Part shown: in pieces, positions 56,646-64,000 of the stretch
How the letters are laid out: each line of letters begins with the position of its first letter
Numbering within the stretch: position 1 is the first letter of the stretch
Assembly (NCBI GenBank): GCA_964619365.1
Contig: CAZUDQ010000004.1
Coordinates: forward strand, 13,185 to 77,184
DNA from: an uncultured archaeon
GTDB lineage: Archaea; Altiarchaeota; Altiarchaeia; JAFGQM01
Direction: 5' to 3'
DNA: 64,000 nucleotides
The notes under the pieces: generated by a model
Database searches by the model: none
Told to the model about the DNA's origin: nothing
Seen by the model: the letters and a program-made list of their open reading frames with translations, nothing else
Made by a program: the position numbers and the translations under genes

Positions 56646-57323
56646 TTATGCCCTAAATTGTTTGTAGCTTAGATTCAGTTCCCTAGAATTTTCACCATCT
56701 TTATAGTAACTATAAGTACTCCCTTTTGTGATGCTATCTTTATCAGTAAGCTCTCTTATGAGTGGTTTACCTGGAAATGGATTAGCTAAATACTCTTTTT
56801 TACCTATCCTGAATTTGACATATGAATGTCCAACACCAGAATGTCCGTCGTAACTATACCCACTTCTAACATACGACACGTCCCGAATTTTGCCACGTCT
56901 TGCCATAAGGGCTGCTGCAAGCGCGTCGCACGCAACTTTACACCCCCATACAGGTCTCCCATCTTTACTAAAGCGCGTTCCTATCTTTTTTGTTGTCACG
57001 ACATCATGAGCAGTTGTCTTATCATATATTTTTTGCCAGGCATCCCGATTTTTTTCAGGGGTGTAAAAACTAGCAATTTTTTTTGTCATGTCAAAAACAC
57101 CGTTACGTGTGTCAGGAAACTTATTTGCAAAGGTCTTTATGGCCACAGTCTCACGTGTCGGATCAAGAAGTCCTTTTGCCATCCATTTATGTTCCCCCTT
57201 ACGGAGTTCTCTCATCCGGGCGGCTCGTTCCTTTCGCCAGGCAGAATCAAAATAAGTCTTGTTGACGTATTCATTCAAAGGCTGCTTTTTAGGTACGGCC
57301 GCAGGTTTCTTAGGTCTTGCCAT
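56646..57323 (-). CDS. Transglutaminase/papain-like fold protein, paralog A
   Basis: WGC.VAC..LAAAL, GHSYVKF, YLANPF (Cys-His-Asn); basic N-terminus. Confidence 0.55.
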   Translation of the reverse strand: MARPKKPAAVPKKQPLNEYVNKTYFDSAWRKERAARMRELRKGEHKWMAKGLLDPTRETVAIKTFANKFPDTRNGVFDMTKKIASFYTPEKNRDAWQKIYDKTTAHDVVTTKKIGTRFSKDGRPVWGCKVACDALAAALMARRGKIRDVSYVRSGYSYDGHSGVGHSYVKFRIGKKEYLANPFPGKPLIRELTDKDSITKGSTYSYYKDGENSRELNLSYKQFRA

Positions 57324-57346: not shown

Positions 57347-58039
57347 CTATTTGAGTGCTTGCTTTCTTTGCCCGCGCAATTTTTTATAAGTAAGCCCAAG
57401 TTCTTTAGAATCCTTTCCCTCTTCATAACTGTAAACCATGGGGTCTCCTCCAAGTTCCCTTTTTGTATTGGGGCGCAAAGGCATTAGATGTGCTTCACTT
57501 CCTGGAAACGGGTCTGCTAGATATTCATGGTCCCCCATCTTAAACTTTACGTAGGAATGCCCAAAGCCCCGGTTTGTCTCACGGACGTAAGTTACGTCAC
57601 GAATGTCTCCGCCTTTTGACTTGAGTGCCGCAACAAGCGTGTCACATGCCGCTTTGCAACCCCACTCGGCCCCGAGTTTAGGGTGGAACTCTGCCCCTAT
57701 CTTTTTTGTCGTCACGACATCATGGGCTGTTGTCTTATCATATACTTTTTGCAAGGCGTCCCGATTCTTTTCGGGGGTGTAAAAACTAGCAATGGTCTTT
57801 GTCATATCAGATATGCCCCCAGGTGTCTCAGGAAACTTTTTTGCAAATGCTTTAACTGCAGGAGTTTTAAGTGTTGGGTTAAGGAGTTCTTTTGCCTTTA
57901 ATTTCTCCCCCTTCCGGCGAAGTTCCCATATCTGGGCGGCTCGTTCCTTTCGCCCGGCAGAATCAAAATAAGTTTCGTTGATACGCTTGTTTAAAGGCGG
58001 CTTTTTCTGTGCGGCAGGGCTTTTCTTTTTTGTGGCCAT
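57347..58039 (-). CDS. Transglutaminase/papain-like fold protein, paralog B
   Basis: WGC.AAC..LVAAL, GHSYVKF, YLADPF (Cys-His-Asp); tandem duplicate of 56646-57323. Confidence 0.55.
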   Translation of the reverse strand: MATKKKSPAAQKKPPLNKRINETYFDSAGRKERAAQIWELRRKGEKLKAKELLNPTLKTPAVKAFAKKFPETPGGISDMTKTIASFYTPEKNRDALQKVYDKTTAHDVVTTKKIGAEFHPKLGAEWGCKAACDTLVAALKSKGGDIRDVTYVRETNRGFGHSYVKFKMGDHEYLADPFPGSEAHLMPLRPNTKRELGGDPMVYSYEEGKDSKELGLTYKKLRGQRKQALK

Positions 58040-58954: not shown

Positions 58955-59512
58955 ATGATGCTTCCAACAGCTCAGGAATTCAGGCACATGCGCACAAAAG
59001 TAGGCCTTACTCAAAAAGACCTTGCAAGAAAAGCGGGAGTCTCCCAGGCACTTATCGCAAGAATTGAAGGGGGCTCAATCGATACAAAACTTTCAACTGC
59101 TCAGAAAATACTCGATGCTCTGAAAACAAGCCCGACAAGAAAAAAGTCCCTCGACATAAAAGATTATATGCACTCCCCCGTCACTTATTGCCAACCAACT
59201 GACATTCTCAGACGCGCGATTTCCATAATGGAAGAAGAAGGCATATCCCAGATGCCTGTTATGGAGGGTGGCAAGCAGGTAGGTTCTATAGTCGATACAA
59301 AAATCGTAAAGATACTTTCAAAAAAGGGAAGCCGCGCAACAAAGGCAAAAATCTCACAGATTATGGCGTCTCCCTTCCCAGAAATTGACTCGAGCGCACC
59401 GATAGACAAGGCAATAAGGCTTCTTGGAAAAAGTCCGGCTATCCTAGTTATGAATGGTCCCCATGTCTCAGGGATAATCACAAAAGCCGATGTTTTGAGA
59501 ATGGCACTCTAA
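58955..59512 (+). CDS. XRE-family HTH regulator with CBS domains (COG3620)
   Basis: GLTQKDLARKAGVSQALIARIE.G.ID; CBS pair ending GIITKADVL. Confidence 0.9.
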   Translation: MMLPTAQEFRHMRTKVGLTQKDLARKAGVSQALIARIEGGSIDTKLSTAQKILDALKTSPTRKKSLDIKDYMHSPVTYCQPTDILRRAISIMEEEGISQMPVMEGGKQVGSIVDTKIVKILSKKGSRATKAKISQIMASPFPEIDSSAPIDKAIRLLGKSPAILVMNGPHVSGIITKADVLRMAL

Positions 59513-59544
59513 GAATCTGTAATTGTGGCGAGTTTGAACAAAAC

Positions 59545-59560
59545 ACACAACATCTTGTGG
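59545..59560 (+). promoter_or_regulatory. NrdR box
   Basis: ACACAACATCTTGTGG fits the acaCwAtATaTwGtg consensus; adjacent to a TTTTTAT TATA-like element; a second TTGTGG half-site lies 32 bp upstream. Confidence 0.75.
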
Positions 59561-59591
59561 TTGTTTTTATTCCCGGTGCTCAAATATACTC

Positions 59592-60044
59592 ATGAAATGT
59601 CCTTTCTGCAGCTTTTCGGAAACCAGAGTTGTTGATAAAAGGGATTCTGGCGAACAAGACTGCACGCGCCGCCGCCGCCAGTGCCTAAAATGCCATCAGC
59701 GTTTTACTACTTATGAGCGTCCTGATATCTCCCAGATAATGATTGTAAAAAAGGACGGACGCATGGAAGCTTTTGACAGGTCAAAAGTACTAAAAGGAAT
59801 CATCCGTGCATGTGAAAAGCGTCCAATCTCAGTTACTGCGATGAATAAGATGGCTGAAGAAGTTGAAATAGAAATCAGAAAGGACAATTCTCGCGAGATT
59901 TCTTCAAAAAAGATAGGCAACATAATAATGCGTAGACTAAAGAAGCTTGATAAAGTTGCGTATTTAAGATTTGCTTCAGTGTACCGTGAATTCGATGACT
60001 TAAATGATTTTGAAAAAGAGTTCACAAAACTTTCGGGGGGATAA
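59592..60044 (+). CDS. nrdR: Transcriptional repressor NrdR
   Basis: MKCPFC..V.D.R..RRRR.C..C..RFTTYE zinc ribbon, ATP cone, DKVAYLRFASVYREF. Confidence 0.96.
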   Translation: MKCPFCSFSETRVVDKRDSGEQDCTRRRRQCLKCHQRFTTYERPDISQIMIVKKDGRMEAFDRSKVLKGIIRACEKRPISVTAMNKMAEEVEIEIRKDNSREISSKKIGNIIMRRLKKLDKVAYLRFASVYREFDDLNDFEKEFTKLSGG

Positions 60045-60047
60045 GAA

Positions 60048-60944
60048 ATGGAGATAAAAGGAACAATAGTAGAAGATACTTACGCAGAGGCATTCGACGG
60101 TCTTTTTGCAAGGATGATTGTTACCGCAAAGAATTCTAAGTTGCTAAAAAAGGCGGTTTATGACGCAACAGCCCTTCCCTGTACTGTATTTGGCGAGGCA
60201 GAGGGTGGCGTAGAGGCCTTTCTTAGCCCTCAGGAGACCCCAGACGGCCGCATCGGAGCAATAATCCAGCTTTGGGTCGCATATACTAAAAATGCTAAAG
60301 ATAAGCTCACACGCGAGCTTGGGAAGAGAATAAGACAAGGAATTCTTGTTGTCCCCACAACGCGCGTCTTTGATGCCCCAATGGGTGAGAAAAAGGACGA
60401 AGTGAGTATGATGGAGATTGTCGGCCATTGCGGGGACGGTCATGAGTGGACTGAAGAGCGCTTTGGAAGAACTTTAATAAATGTCCCACTGATGATGGGA
60501 GAGTTTCTGATAGATGGGAAGATAACTGCTCAAAAAGGGGTTGCTGGAGGAAACATCTGGCTTTTTTGCGAGTCTGAAGAAGACGCACTTAATGCAGCCG
60601 AGAAATGCGTGCTCGCGACAGACAAGGTTCCCGGCGCAATTGCCCCCTTTGATATATGCTCTGCCGGCTCTAAAGTCGAGACGAATTTCCCTGAGATAGG
60701 GCCAACGACAAACCATCCCTTTTGTCCGACATTAAAAGGTAAAATAGCTGATTTTAAAGTGCCCGAAGGAATCGTTTCAATCCCGGAGATTGTAATAGAC
60801 GGAACTTCCTTAGACGCAGTTAGGGATGCGATGAAGGCTTGCGTGGACGCGGCCGCAGGAATGGATGGCGTGCGCATGATATCTGCAGGCAACTTCGGCG
60901 GGAAACTTGGGCGACACCACATATACCTAAAAGACTTAATCTAA
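60048..60944 (+). CDS. Formylmethanofuran:H4MPT formyltransferase-family protein (divergent, EhaS/Ftr-2-like)
   Basis: EDTYAEAF, ETPDGR.G, GVAGGN, SAGSK, PTTNHPFCPTL, PEIVIDG, ISAGNFGGKLG. Confidence 0.88.
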   Translation: MEIKGTIVEDTYAEAFDGLFARMIVTAKNSKLLKKAVYDATALPCTVFGEAEGGVEAFLSPQETPDGRIGAIIQLWVAYTKNAKDKLTRELGKRIRQGILVVPTTRVFDAPMGEKKDEVSMMEIVGHCGDGHEWTEERFGRTLINVPLMMGEFLIDGKITAQKGVAGGNIWLFCESEEDALNAAEKCVLATDKVPGAIAPFDICSAGSKVETNFPEIGPTTNHPFCPTLKGKIADFKVPEGIVSIPEIVIDGTSLDAVRDAMKACVDAAAGMDGVRMISAGNFGGKLGRHHIYLKDLI

Positions 60945-60968
60945 AAGTTTAAGGAAATCTAATTAAAA

Positions 60969-61994
60969 ATGATTTTTGTCTTTGACCTTGAGGGACCACT
61001 TTCTCCGATGGACCACGCGGCAGACTGCATGAAGTTAATCGGCGAGAACCTGGGACGTGACGATTTCTTTGACCTTTTTGGCATGCTTTCCCTTTATGAT
61101 GACGAACTTACTTTGGAAGGAAAGCCCGGTTATAATCCTGGGGACACTTTACGCCTTATAGCCCCTATTGTCTCGACGCACCTAAGTCGTGAGGAAATGA
61201 TTGGGATAAGTGAAACAGCGACTCTTACTCCGGGCGCAAAAGACCTAATGGCACGACTTGACCTTGACAATGTCTATGTCGCGTCCACATCATATTCAGA
61301 GCACGCCCACACAATTGCAAGACGTCTTGGAATCTATCCTGAAAACGTCAATTGCACAAAACTTCCCGATTTTAAGAGTTTCCCATACATGGAGGATCTT
61401 GAGAATATCTTTGCAAAGTATAAGGACACTGGCTCAGAGATAAGCGCTGTTAAGGCGGACCTTGATTCTTTCTTTTGGTCCAGGCTCCCTTCAGAGTATC
61501 TCACAACAAAAGTCTGTGGCGGGGCGCGCAAGCTTGATGTAGTAAAACGTCTTGTAGAAGAGAGGCGCGAACCAAGTTCTAATTTTGTTTGCGTGGGTGA
61601 CTCGATAACAGACATCAATATGCTTGAAGGTGTCGCCGAAGCAGGCGGACTTGCAATATCTTTTAATGGAAATGGATACAGCGCGCCTGTTGCAAACCTT
61701 TGCGTATCCTCAAAATCGCTTATGGCGATATATCCTCTTGTGGAAGCAGACGACCCATGGAAAATTGTTTCTGACTGGCGTGAGATTCAAGACAGGCTAA
61801 AGCTTCTAACACCAAAAACACGCGAATATTTCAGGGACAAAGGAATCTTACCATCTTATGACGAAGTAAGAAAATCTTACCTCACAGGAGCCTATCCAAA
61901 AGAGGAAGTAAGAAAATCTTACTTATGTGAAGTCGTAGTCAGGCAAAAGACTGCGCGAAAAGAGATGAGAAAACAGTATGGAGACCTGACATGA
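60969..61994 (+). CDS. HAD-superfamily protein, EhaR/COG4030-like
   Basis: FDLEGPLS..D, LS.YDD.L..KPGY.PGDTL.LI.P, STSY, GG..K, VGDSITD, SFNGN.Y. Confidence 0.82.
   Translation: MIFVFDLEGPLSPMDHAADCMKLIGENLGRDDFFDLFGMLSLYDDELTLEGKPGYNPGDTLRLIAPIVSTHLSREEMIGISETATLTPGAKDLMARLDLDNVYVASTSYSEHAHTIARRLGIYPENVNCTKLPDFKSFPYMEDLENIFAKYKDTGSEISAVKADLDSFFWSRLPSEYLTTKVCGGARKLDVVKRLVEERREPSSNFVCVGDSITDINMLEGVAEAGGLAISFNGNGYSAPVANLCVSSKSLMAIYPLVEADDPWKIVSDWREIQDRLKLLTPKTREYFRDKGILPSYDEVRKSYLTGAYPKEEVRKSYLCEVVVRQKTARKEMRKQYGDLT
61863..61922. repeat. Two direct copies of the palindromic GAAGTAAGAAAATCTTAC inside the HAD gene
   Basis: Copies at 61863 and 61905 (42-bp period), each encoding EVRKSY(L). Confidence 0.8.
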
Positions 61995-63016
61995 TAACAT
62001 TTAGCAAAAAAGATTACGCAGAACGGTTCAGCGCCTTACGGGAAAAATTATCTCCAAAAGAAGTCTTCTTAGTAAATAGTGGTGCAAATATGCGTTATCT
62101 TACAGGCTTTAATTCCGGACGTATGATTGTGTCTAAGGAGACTGCCACATACTGGCTAAACGAGGCCTATTCCGGGCTTTCAAAAGACGCCCCGCTTGAA
62201 GCAACGCCATATTCTAAGGATTGCATAAAAAATGCGATATTCGCCCTTAATCCAAAATCCATTCTGATTGACGAGATGAGTTTTCCAACTTACGAGTACT
62301 CAGATTCCAAGTTAAAAGGACTTTACAAGAGCTCAGAAATCCTAACTGACCTTAGGATGATAAAATCCGAAAAGGAAACTGAACTTATAAGAGAATCCGG
62401 AAAGCTTGCAGCCGAAGTTATCAAAGCCGCAGAAGAGATGACTCTTATCGGTATGAATGAATTTGAACTGGCTGGAGAGCTTGAGGGGATGATACGAAAA
62501 GGGGGTTCGGAGTGGCCGCCATTTGAATCGGGGATGCTTTGTCTGGCAGGACCAAACACAAGATACATTCACGCGCCACCATCAGAAAGAAAGATTAAGG
62601 GGGGTGACCTTGTTGTCCTTGATATCGGAGCCTCAATCGGAGGGTATCACTCAGATATGACGCGCACACTTAAAATCGGCAATATAAGCGAACCAGCATC
62701 AGAACTTCGCGATTTTGTAATGGATCTTGAGGCAAGCTGCATTGAGCGCTGTGAGATTGGCGGGAAAATATCTGAAGTGCACAAGTACGCCGAGGAGCAA
62801 ATTGAAGCATATGGGCAGAAGTTTTATCATCTGCTTGGGCACGGCGTTGGACTGAATATCCATGAATCGCCGTCCATCGGACCAGACTGCGAGCTTGTCT
62901 TTAAAGAAGGCATGGTATTTACAATAGAGCCAGGCATTTATACAAGTGAGATAGGTGCAAGATTTGAGGATACGATTACGTTTAAAGATGGCAAGAAAGA
63001 AATCCTGACAAAATAA
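61991..63016 (+). CDS. Xaa-Pro peptidase, M24 family
   Basis: RYLTGF, LRMIKS, DIGA..GGYHSDMTRT, H.LGHGVGL.IHE.P, FTIEPGIY, RFED. Confidence 0.92.
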   Translation: MITFSKKDYAERFSALREKLSPKEVFLVNSGANMRYLTGFNSGRMIVSKETATYWLNEAYSGLSKDAPLEATPYSKDCIKNAIFALNPKSILIDEMSFPTYEYSDSKLKGLYKSSEILTDLRMIKSEKETELIRESGKLAAEVIKAAEEMTLIGMNEFELAGELEGMIRKGGSEWPPFESGMLCLAGPNTRYIHAPPSERKIKGGDLVVLDIGASIGGYHSDMTRTLKIGNISEPASELRDFVMDLEASCIERCEIGGKISEVHKYAEEQIEAYGQKFYHLLGHGVGLNIHESPSIGPDCELVFKEGMVFTIEPGIYTSEIGARFEDTITFKDGKKEILTK

Positions 63017-63082: not shown

Positions 63083-64000
63083 ATGGACAATAAACTGATT
63101 TTTGCCGCCATTATTGCAATTGTAGTGGCTTTAGTAATGATATTTGTTTTATTTGTTGGTGATCCTAGTGAACTTTCAAGCATATCGAGTTTTGTTTTGA
63201 TGGATTCTGCCGATACGCAAACCGGGGACATCGATGAATGCGAGGAAAGACTCTTGAAAGTAGAACGAGAGTTGTGCTATATGGAGTTTGCAGAAAAAAA
63301 TGGAGATTTAACTTTATGTGAAAAAATCGAATATGATACAACTAAGGCTAGGTGCATTGTTGGTGTTACCAAAGATCCGCAAGATTGCTTAAGATTTAAA
63401 GATTATGATTTTCAACAAATATGTTTAGCAAAACTTACCAATAATCCAGATATTTGCAAACAATTCACTGACGAATGGAATAACAGAAATTGTTATACTG
63501 ACGTTGCAGAAGAAAACAACAGACCTGAACTTTGTGAAAAAATAATTAATGCAAGTGAGGTTTCCTATTGTTATTGGGGGGTAGCAAAAGAAAACAACAG
63601 ACCTGAACTCTGCGAAAAAATCAAGTCACAATATGATAAAAATAACTGTTATTTTCACATTGCAATGGACTATTCACGCCCGGAACTCTGTAATAAAATA
63701 AAAGATTCTGAAACTGGAGATGTCTGTTATGCTGTCATTTCAGAAGATTCCAGTAGACCGGAACTCTGCGAAAAAATCACAGACATGGGAATTAAAGATA
63801 GTTGCTATTCTGATATCGCAAGGAATTCCAATAGACCAGAACTCTGCGAAAAAATCACAGACTCAGATAGTAGGGATTACTGTTATTCTAATATTTCAGA
63901 AGATTCCAGTAGACCGGAACTCTGCGAAAAAATCACAGACATGGAAATTAAAGATAGTTGCTATTCTGATATCGCAAGGAATTCCAATAGACCAGAACTC
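63083..64000 (+). CDS. Membrane-anchored Cys-repeat surface protein, truncated by the window end
   Basis: MDNKLIFAAIIAIVVALVMIFVLFV TM, then 26-aa repeats CY..IA....RPELCEKI; open to the end of the window and absent from the supplied ORF track. Confidence 0.85.
   Translation, partial: MDNKLIFAAIIAIVVALVMIFVLFVGDPSELSSISSFVLMDSADTQTGDIDECEERLLKVERELCYMEFAEKNGDLTLCEKIEYDTTKARCIVGVTKDPQDCLRFKDYDFQQICLAKLTNNPDICKQFTDEWNNRNCYTDVAEENNRPELCEKIINASEVSYCYWGVAKENNRPELCEKIKSQYDKNNCYFHIAMDYSRPELCNKIKDSETGDVCYAVISEDSSRPELCEKITDMGIKDSCYSDIARNSNRPELCEKITDSDSRDYCYSNISEDSSRPELCEKITDMEIKDSCYSDIARNSNRPEL

Follow-up and report, generated by a model that had tools for sequence, protein, structure and literature searches.

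The locus described here raises the question of why nrdR, the gene of the NrdR repressor, should head a set of genes with no ribonucleotide reductase (RNR) among them, and be followed by a formyltransferase (Ftr)-like gene, a haloacid dehalogenase (HAD)-superfamily gene and an M24 peptidase gene. It lies in a stretch of 64,000 nucleotides (nt), referred to below as the window, on contig C4 of a genome (G000) of 1.2 Mb in 17 contigs that is 85% complete, and the best protein matches of the window are to Altiarchaeota. A first-pass annotation of the window had read the locus as an NrdR-controlled operon. Based on comparison with related genomes we suggest instead that it is what remains after deletion of a reductase gene, that the genes behind nrdR are now read through from the nrdR promoter, and that the formyltransferase paralogue, Ftr2, belongs to a module acting in purine formylation, at the step where glycinamide ribonucleotide (GAR) is formylated. 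Taken as a whole, we consider this explanation to have a somewhat better than even chance of being right. The features of the locus are as follows.

58955..59512, plus strand: transcription regulator with HTH_3 and a CBS pair (Pfam HTH_3 4.4e-12, CBS 2.7e-17)
59513..59528, no strand: remnant of NrdR box 1, which has kept its 3' half alone, TTGTGG (59523-59528)
59545..59560, no strand: box 2, intact NrdR box ACACAACATCTTGTGG (weight-matrix score 20.1)
59564..59571, plus strand: TATA-like element TTTTTATT, read from the sequence, 21 nt ahead of the nrdR ATG
59592..60044, plus strand: nrdR (TIGR00244 186 bits, cut-off 124.65; Zn_ribbon_NrdR and ATP-cone)
60045..60047, no strand: deletion junction, where nrdJ and cobA stand in relatives (from comparison with these)
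60048..60944, plus strand: gene for an Ftr2-type (EhaS-like) formyltransferase paralogue (PF01913, PF02741), the proposed GAR formyltransferase
60969..61994, plus strand: HAD-superfamily gene of the EhaR/COG4030/AF1437 family (homologues, profile match to PDB 1Y8A)
61991..63016, plus strand: M24 metallopeptidase gene, PepQ/prolidase-like (Peptidase_M24 1.7e-51)

The gene order originally annotated (nrdR, Ftr family, HAD, overlapping M24) is confirmed, and all four genes were found where they had been placed; ftr2 starts 3 nt past the nrdR stop codon, and the HAD and M24 genes overlap by 4 nt. The layout is not an assembly artefact, because contigs of separate public runs cover both the promoter region (X1, X2 and X3) and the junction of nrdR and ftr (X1 and X4) without differences. 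The accompanying statement that there is no RNR and no hydrogenase holds for the operon; nrdDG genes are present elsewhere in the genome.

Among the 61 phylum genomes, the search for NrdR gave matches in 15; four of them are weak ATP-cone matches in very large open reading frames (ORFs), which leaves 11 genomes, and seven of these belong to the family of the window (eight genomes). Five of the seven (G054, G055, G056, G057 and G059) have the order nrdR-nrdJ-cobA-ftr, in which nrdJ encodes an ATP-cone class II reductase and starts within a few bases of nrdR, and the HAD and M24 genes follow beyond ftr in G054, G055 and G056, the three whose examined stretch extends past ftr. Only in G000 and G058 does nrdR stand directly before ftr and HAD. 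These two are also the only family genomes without cobA, the gene of an ATP:corrinoid adenosyltransferase, which is found in the other six. The reductase genes themselves form exactly complementary sets, with the B12-dependent class II gene nrdJ (PF02867) in six of the eight genomes and nrdD (PF13597) in two, and in both G000 and G058 nrdDG adjoins an S-adenosylmethionine synthetase gene and carries tandem boxes. On the other side of the locus, the HTH_3-CBS gene is found 5' of nrdR here and in all five relatives with a visible upstream flank, and it may encode a second nucleotide-sensing regulator of the nrdR locus.

The junctions of the two genomes are unlike. In G000 (nrdR stop, 3 nt, ftr ATG) the junction resembles that between nrdR and nrdJ of the relatives, whereas the approximately 55 nt of G058 resemble the spacer between cobA and ftr. 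This spacer is AT-rich in the relatives, 33-37 nt long in the two where it was measured, and holds TATA-like elements approximately 10-25 nt ahead of the ftr ATG.

Judged from gene order, these comparisons show the fusion of nrdR and ftr2 to be a deletion scar after loss of nrdJ and cobA. The ancestral string would have consisted of HTH-CBS, nrdR-nrdJ-cobA and ftr2-HAD-M24, with the window locus as a remnant of it; nrdJ and cobA were deleted in G000, and class III nrdDG on another contig now supplies the deoxyribonucleotides. Since the cobA-ftr spacers of the relatives hold TATA-like elements, ftr probably had its own promoter ancestrally; the deletion that fused nrdR to ftr2 with a 3-nt spacer removed the TATA-bearing spacer here, and with it, probably, this promoter. 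Transcription of the ftr2-HAD-M24 genes probably now starts at the nrdR promoter, with its one remaining NrdR box, and runs on through nrdR, and NrdR control over them would be a by-product and probably weak. In this way the switch from a class II to a class III reductase would explain the odd nrdR operon without RNR, by a history that is plain and checkable.

Two further features were seen in the relatives. The nrdJ gene of G054 (L058:1959-5252, 1097 amino acids (aa)) contains a LAGLIDADG intein; the nrdJ frames are similarly long in G055 and G059 (1104-1112 aa) and intein-less in G056 and G057 (694-701 aa). In G054, a relative of the same genus, a PemK/MazF-type toxin gene (L058:6959-7348) lies between ftr2 and HAD.

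The Ftr protein had been suspected not to be canonical, and this is borne out. It matches both families of the fold (PF01913, 5.1e-45; PF02741, 3.1e-54) and NF002554 (352 against a cut-off of 297), and on the equivalog TIGR03119 it stays at 254 bits, below the cut-off of 292.6. It is the only Ftr homologue in G000 and in the family. Identities are 64-66% to the second copies of Archaeoglobus veneficus, A. profundus and Ferroglobus and 60-64% to ANME-1 and Methanosarcinales copies, and the solved Ftrs, the A. fulgidus enzyme included, are matched with only 175-196 bits. The A. veneficus relative likewise gets no further than 210 bits when compared with the A. fulgidus structure, while proteins of the Ftr1 side (the second type of the phylum and two cluster representatives) reach 274-322 bits against solved enzymes.

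In a maximum-likelihood tree of 80 Ftr sequences, from which three long-branch or fragmentary representatives were left out, the window protein falls within a clade of 27 rows (support 99/98) that also holds the Archaeoglobales second copies, ANME-1, Methanosarcinales and the 'type A' copies of Altiarchaeota. The sister clade (100/99) holds all sequences nearest the solved Ftrs. It should be noted that the ten Ftr cluster representatives that were named have labels of metagenome-assembled genomes (MAGs) only (Thermoproteota, Aenigmarchaeota), with no Methanothermobacter among them. The residues that separate the Ftr2 clade are P44 (against A), R96 (against G), C128, C174, I217-G218-P219 and P246. 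P44 and R96 lie in the two peptide segments (residues 41-57 and 94-100) that the first-pass annotation had singled out as differing from canonical Ftr, so these segments exist and are telling. The column of E247 is conserved in both clades, and it aligns with the glutamate that we take to be catalytic in Methanopyrus kandleri Ftr. Tree, scores and residues together show the window protein to be, at the level of its sequence, an Ftr2/EhaS-type paralogue.

An Ftr2 clade comprising ANME-1, ANME-2a, ANME-2b, Archaeoglobales, M. kandleri and M. marburgensis is described by Chadwick et al. 2022 (PMC9012536), according to whom only Ftr1 is characterised. In the account of Kaster et al. 2011 (PMC3087415) the second copy of Methanothermobacter is the eha-operon gene EhaS, and EhaT is annotated as a ribokinase. 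With Ftr1 (PDB 1FTR, 1M5S and 1M5H; FhcD 6S6Y) the window protein shares the families of the two-lobe fold, the length and the conserved glutamate; unlike Ftr1 it belongs to a separate clade, scores low against the solved enzymes and is encoded in a genome where no fwd genes were found. The Ftr1-type copies of the phylum adjoin CitG-like and DUF371 genes. A third Ftr type, with 33-36% identity, was seen on G007:C1 in a cluster of the form fwdA-fwdB ... ftr-fwdC-mch, arranged like bacterial fhc genes.

HAD proteins usually have D-x-D as motif I. In the family of the window protein motif I is D-x-E in 20 of 20 aligned members, with motifs II-IV present (D6-x-E8, S106-T107-S108, K188 and G210-D211-S212-x-x-D215 in the alignment). 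The Joint Genome Institute (JGI) lists homologues of 36-63% identity as 'energy-converting hydrogenase A subunit R', and the family profile, for which the window protein was combined with 19 homologues, matches the structural-genomics HAD protein AF1437 (PDB 1Y8A) over its full length with 2.4e-49. Labels and profile agree in showing an EhaR/AF1437-type protein, as the original COG4030/EhaR-like assignment had it, and the two proteins are also alike in being without an assigned function.

The ribokinase-like PfkB protein encoded on contig C8 of G000 is 39% identical to an Odinarchaeota copy that adjoins HAD. HAD, Ftr2-clade paralogue and PfkB together resemble EhaR-EhaS-EhaT of Methanothermobacter (PMC3087415, PMC9012536), where the families were matched via labels and the literature. 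Unlike in the eha operon, no Eha or group-4 hydrogenase was found, the order is ftr2-HAD, PfkB is on another contig and an M24 gene is attached. The group-4 hydrogenase large subunit (PF00346) has no match in the 85% complete G000, and in the three of eight family genomes where it is found it lies on contigs other than that of ftr2-HAD, which upholds the earlier claim that the EhaS/EhaR pair is independent of hydrogenase.

Regarding the purine pathway, G000 has PurF, PurD, PurL, PurE and PurB, and on G000:C2 (L156:3601-5802) two tandem purP paralogues, which belong to the family of formate-dependent 5-aminoimidazole-4-carboxamide ribonucleotide (AICAR) formyltransferases and both fall below the NCBIfam equivalog cut-offs. 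In the same 85% complete genome no PurN was found and no PurT, the best match for the latter being one of 46.6 bits inside a 1077-aa ORF. For one-carbon (C1) metabolism there is an MtdA-like gene, present in eight of eight family genomes, and an Mch-like gene (81 bits on Pfam; 67.8 against a cut-off of 228.8 on TIGR03120). FwdB gave no match in the genome at this completeness, the best FwdA score was 30 bits (cut-off 392.75), CdhC of carbon monoxide dehydrogenase/acetyl-CoA synthase was not found, and tblastn with the bacterial-type Fwd/Fhc cluster of G007 returned nothing convincing. As predicted from this gene content, the C1 chain from methylene-tetrahydromethanopterin (methylene-H4MPT) to formyl-H4MPT ends at Ftr2, and the purine pathway lacks only GAR formylation.

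We propose that the MtdA-like and Mch-like enzymes would oxidise methylene-H4MPT to N5-formyl-H4MPT, and that Ftr2 would move the formyl group from there to the primary amine of the glycinamide of GAR, giving formylglycinamide ribonucleotide (FGAR). The GAR amine would take the place of the aminomethyl group of methanofuran, Ftr2 would replace PurN or PurT, and PurL would then pull the reaction forward. HAD and the PfkB protein, whose gene is on another contig, would take part in this step as well. Further, we speculate that Arg96, which is specific to Ftr2, could bind the 5'-phosphate of GAR. The comparison with PurN and PurT is a claim of working alike and not of family membership: the putative reaction from GAR to FGAR is the same, Ftr2 stands in the position of PurN next to HAD and the distributions are complementary, while the fold has no relation to theirs and the formyl group would come from formyl-H4MPT, not from 10-formyl-tetrahydrofolate or from formate with ATP.

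For the window organism, that Ftr2 formylates GAR from formyl-H4MPT with HAD and PfkB as partners seems to us almost an even call, falling just on the doubtful side. More tentative again is the wider reading, according to which Ftr2 (EhaS) would be the missing GAR formyltransferase of archaea without PurN and PurT, with the EhaR-type HAD and EhaT-type ribokinase-like proteins as its partners; the lineages concerned are Archaeoglobales, Methanobacteriales, Methanopyrus, ANME-1, many Altiarchaeota and the examined Asgard and Bathyarchaeia genomes. If true, EhaR, EhaS and EhaT would be purine-synthesis genes and not hydrogenase subunits, the AF1437 structure would be re-assigned, and a route of H4MPT-bound C1 units into purines would be shown.

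The distribution of the genes among the 61 phylum genomes points in this direction. Ftr2 was scored as present from an identity of 52% with the window protein upwards (28 genomes), and with G023 (48%, Ftr2 clade by the tree) this gives 29 genomes; PurN was called at 127 bits at least (35 genomes), a 29-bit match in G059 not being counted. PurN is missing in 23 of the 29 Ftr2 genomes and present in six, and it is present in 29 of the 32 genomes without Ftr2; the pattern is repeated across about a dozen genera per side. The three genomes without both are 57%, 79% and 87% complete. PurT is found in none of the 61 genomes and PurD in 56. The HAD gene follows Ftr2 closely in distribution (25 of 29 Ftr2 genomes, against 2 of 32 without), and outside the family of the window the two genes lie on different contigs.

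The neighbourhoods of HAD were surveyed in the best 80 named loci of 563 confirmed. These come from Altiarchaeota-like MAGs, Asgard, Bathyarchaeia, ANME-1, Methanosarcinales and, most numerous, Chloroflexota, and no Methanobacteria locus is among these best 80. Ftr2 is immediately 5' of HAD in five of six Altiarchaeota-like loci, the sixth ending at a contig edge. The same position is occupied by a PurN-like formyltransferase in all 32 Chloroflexota loci, 27 of which have PfkB on the 3' side; this protein is divergent (best model PurN, 68 bits, below cut-off). No Ftr homologue was found in the one Dehalococcoidia genome searched. In the phylum itself, HAD directly follows true PurN in G035 and G043. 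Of the 14 Asgard loci, 13 have PurD at most 3 kb 5' of HAD, PfkB (12), PurE (10) and PurF (9) are close by, and the single Bathyarchaeia HAD locus has the same purine context. Five Asgard and Bathyarchaeia genomes with purF-purD-HAD-PfkB were found to have no PurN (one 41-bit match) and no PurT; all five carry two Ftr copies, one of Ftr2 type (50-61% identity) and one of Ftr1 type (35-38%). In G023 the gene of the next enzyme of the pathway, purS/L, comes directly after the Ftr2-clade gene. In ANME-1, Ftr2 is within 3 kb of HAD in only one of 13 loci.

The published gene inventories fit this picture. ANME-1 is without PurN and PurT in Chadwick et al. 2022 (PMC9012536), and Brown et al. 2011 (PMC3261824) list no purN or purT for two Archaeoglobi, four Methanobacteriales (once printed 'Methanomicrobiales') and M. 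kandleri, with pathways otherwise intact. The lineages given in these passages as being without PurN and PurT are the lineages with Ftr2. Label evidence summarised in PMC3261824 derives the purine C8 of M. stadtmanae from C2 of acetate. Neither paper assigns a GAR formyltransferase to Archaeoglobales and Methanobacteriales, and their passages on this step do not link Ftr2 with it; in the full-text literature, the coverage of which excludes most subscription journals, we found no paper joining Ftr2 and GAR formylation. Ftr2 would be a concrete candidate for this open gap, and the hypothesis is sharply testable. The suggestion that EhaS and EhaR are linked to purine formylation is thereby supported by the complementarity with PurN and by the HAD neighbourhoods, and not by adjacency to nrdR; from comparative genomics, a hydrogenase-independent EhaS/EhaR module feeding formyl groups to purines gains substantial independent support.

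Several points weigh against the proposed role and the history of the locus. The functional evidence for Ftr2 as a GAR formyltransferase is comparative throughout. PurN, PurT, Fwd and acetyl-CoA synthase can only provisionally be called absent from a genome that is 85% complete, and because the genomes are kin, the two-by-two counts overstate the support. Ftr2 and PurN occur together in six Altiarchaeota genomes (G005, G008, G009, G014, G043 and G049) and, according to Chadwick et al. (PMC9012536), also in ANME-2a/2b. In the 13 loci from outside the family the neighbours of Ftr2 are miscellaneous and mostly non-purine. Brown et al. (PMC3261824) state that formyl-H4MPT is not believed to be a formyl donor, a statement made on the N10 isomer. 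The window protein is placed in the EhaS clade by the description of the tree in PMC9012536 and by shared relatives rather than by Methanothermobacter sequences. The 3' end of nrdR may contain an internal promoter (CTTAAATG, approximately 40 nt before the ftr ATG), and one of the two purP paralogues could be a formate-dependent GAR ligase. Finally, since Ftr2 is the only Ftr of the family, a canonical Ftr role is possible.

This last alternative, an ordinary Ftr of the methanofuran/H4MPT C1 pathway with neighbours of no functional meaning, has several features on its side: the protein is the sole Ftr homologue of genome and family, passes NF002554 and keeps the conserved glutamate column, Mch-like and MtdA-like genes are present, and Altiarchaeales genomes have been described with a modified Wood-Ljungdahl pathway (PMC4975002). 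We nevertheless regard it as unlikely. With no FwdB and no CdhC found, and FwdA far below its cut-off, formyl-methanofuran would have neither source nor sink. The protein is below the TIGR03119 equivalog cut-off and outside the clade nearest all solved Ftrs. In the examined loci Ftr2 never adjoins fwd or mch, whereas the third Ftr type of G007 does, and an ordinary role sits badly with the strong phyletic coupling to HAD and anti-coupling to PurN.

It might also be asked whether the position behind nrdR has been selected, so that NrdR couples formyl and purine supply by ftr2-HAD to deoxyribonucleotide status via the box at 59545-59560. The repressor itself looks intact as an ATP/dATP-sensing protein: the translation has C3/C6, C31/C34, D15, R17 and the RRRR motif R26-R29, and matches PF22811 (Zn ribbon) and PF03477 (ATP-cone). 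To evaluate the boxes, a weight matrix was made from the best box pairs of eight related promoters, none of them from G000, and the whole genome was scanned. The NrdR box claimed at 59545-59560 (box 2) was recovered as the second-best site of the 1.2-Mb genome. Ranks 1 and 3 are the proximal (21.8) and distal (15.9) boxes of nrdD, and the next unrelated site scores 15.6; box 2 and the proximal nrdD box differ at only one of their 16 positions.

A functional NrdR operator is described as two 16-bp boxes with a 15-16 bp linker and C4, A6, T11 and G13 in each, of which C4 and A6 are critical by mutational work (PMC13584703), and an NrdR tetramer bridges a pair of boxes that lie about three helical turns from each other (PMC9110341). 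All four of these positions are present in box 2. The second TTGTGG reported upstream is present, exactly 32 bp 5' of box 2, which is the spacing of the tandem boxes of the relatives, but it is a half-site only: taken as a full 16-mer, 59513-59528 has a score of -17.3, with T4 and T6 in place of C4 and A6, which leaves box 2 as the only complete box at the nrdR promoter. The TATA-like element said to abut the box is there as well.

The promoter of nrdD on contig C12 is organised differently, with TATA TTTTTATA, box, 16 nt, box and ATG and the boxes 32 bp apart, and this layout is as expected for a repressor blocking an archaeal promoter. In the nrdR promoters of the relatives, TTTTTATA is likewise succeeded by two boxes at a distance of 31-32 bp. 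No TATA was found 5' of the boxes at the window nrdR, where the sole TATA-like element lies 3' of box 2; TTTTTATT may drive a leaderless nrdR transcript. By these features nrdDG, and not the ftr2 operon, is the predicted real target of NrdR.

Compared with known nrdR-nrdJ operons, as in Streptomyces coelicolor nrdRJ (PMC9110341), the Zn ribbon, ATP-cone, D15, R17 and RRRR are shared, as are the 16-bp palindromic boxes 31-32 bp apart in relatives and, in the window genome, an intact tandem operator at nrdD; the close relatives appear to have autoregulated nrdR-nrdJ operons of the same kind. The window locus differs in that the reductase genes are gone, one box is lost and non-RNR genes stand behind nrdR, and in that the surviving box is 5' and not 3' of the TATA-like element, in an archaeal promoter (TATA and B recognition element).

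A selected extension of the NrdR regulon to ftr2-HAD would be favoured by the real box next to the TATA-like element, by the 3-nt gap, and by the same-strand position of ftr2 behind nrdR-nrdJ-cobA in five relatives with, where measured, short spacers. G019, of another family, also has nrdJ-cobA-ftr (on G019:C10, followed by a CLC channel gene and a CitG-like gene), but its copy is of Ftr1 type. In G032, a genome without Ftr, nrdR on contig C92 is approximately 1.1 kb 5' of purD with one opposite-strand gene between, a single case. Against such an extension, the direct fusion is seen in two of the seven nrdR-bearing family genomes and arose there by deletion, G058, where nrdR and ftr are likewise fused, lacks an NrdR box 5' of its nrdR, and box 1 is destroyed here whereas tetramers span two boxes (PMC9110341). 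Among genomes with both genes, cobA-ftr adjacency is confined to the window's family and G019, and in G017, G025 and G045, which carry nrdR and ftr, these two genes are on different contigs. The adjacency, being rare outside the family, appears to be a local accident and no conserved regulon, and we consider the selected extension quite improbable.

Two readings of the first-pass annotation lose support with it. The NrdR-controlled operon seems to be largely an artefact of deletion with a half-eroded operator, and the adjacency of nrdR, which arose by loss of nrdJ-cobA, is no evidence for a purine link. A lack of conservation of this adjacency, or a promoter of the downstream genes' own, had been named beforehand as speaking against the idea; the former was found, and the latter is borne out in part by the TATA-like elements in the cobA-ftr spacers of the relatives. 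More generally, reasoning from motif plus adjacency can take a deletion scar for a regulon.

A role of Ftr2, HAD and the ribokinase-like protein (EhaS, EhaR and EhaT) in the synthesis of cofactors (H4MPT, methanofuran) or in ribose-phosphate synthesis or salvage, in place of purine formylation, we hold to be very unlikely. A HAD phosphatase fold with a ribokinase-like kinase does suggest sugar-phosphate chemistry, the module occurs mostly in lineages using H4MPT, and CitG-like and DUF371 genes adjoin the Ftr1-type copies of the phylum. Yet the HAD-PfkB pair stands beside the PurN-like gene in the Chloroflexota loci (32 of 32), which to our knowledge are not from users of H4MPT, it lies inside purF-purD...purE-purB clusters in Asgard, and the Dehalococcoidia genome searched has no Ftr homologue.

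PurT is itself an ATP-grasp formate ligase, and G000 has its two purP paralogues in tandem. That a second PurP-like ATP-grasp enzyme is the missing GAR formyltransferase, working with formate and ATP like PurT and leaving another role to Ftr2, has nonetheless very little probability in our view: many archaea have two purP-like genes with function unassigned (Brown et al., PMC3261824), but the same paper gives Methanobacteriales, without PurN and PurT, a single PurP, so that a second PurP is not the general solution, and both the anti-correlation of Ftr2 and PurN and the adjacency of HAD to PurN or Ftr2 would stay unexplained.

As to the M24 gene, it is within 3 kb of HAD in five of six Altiarchaeota-like and 27 of 32 Chloroflexota loci. 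M24 and elongation factor P (EF-P) genes are a common pair, and the Chloroflexota link may reflect only that. The order in the Chloroflexota loci (within L083-L144) is M24, EF-P, PHP, PurN-like, HAD and PfkB.

A different context was seen in four loci of ANME-1 and Methanosarcinales MAGs (L113, L119, L132 and L142), where HAD is divergent from a DtxR-type repressor gene and is followed by a tetratricopeptide repeat (TPR) gene, a fructose-1,6-bisphosphate aldolase/phosphatase gene, a phosphofructokinase (PFK) gene, an aldolase-like gene and then Ftr2. The ANME-1 locus L142 has a second TPR gene instead of the PFK and aldolase-like genes, and in two of the four an isocitrate/isopropylmalate dehydrogenase gene comes next. 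The context of HAD and Ftr2 in these four loci is gluconeogenic rather than purine.

Elsewhere in the window, two tandem paralogous genes of 225 and 230 aa with Lys-rich N-termini lie on the minus strand at 56646-57323 and 57347-58039; the product of the latter, the one of the two that was scanned, has no Pfam match. Downstream of the M24 gene, an open-ended ORF at 63083-64000 encodes an N-terminal membrane anchor and many Cys-containing repeat units ending in 'RPELCEKI'.

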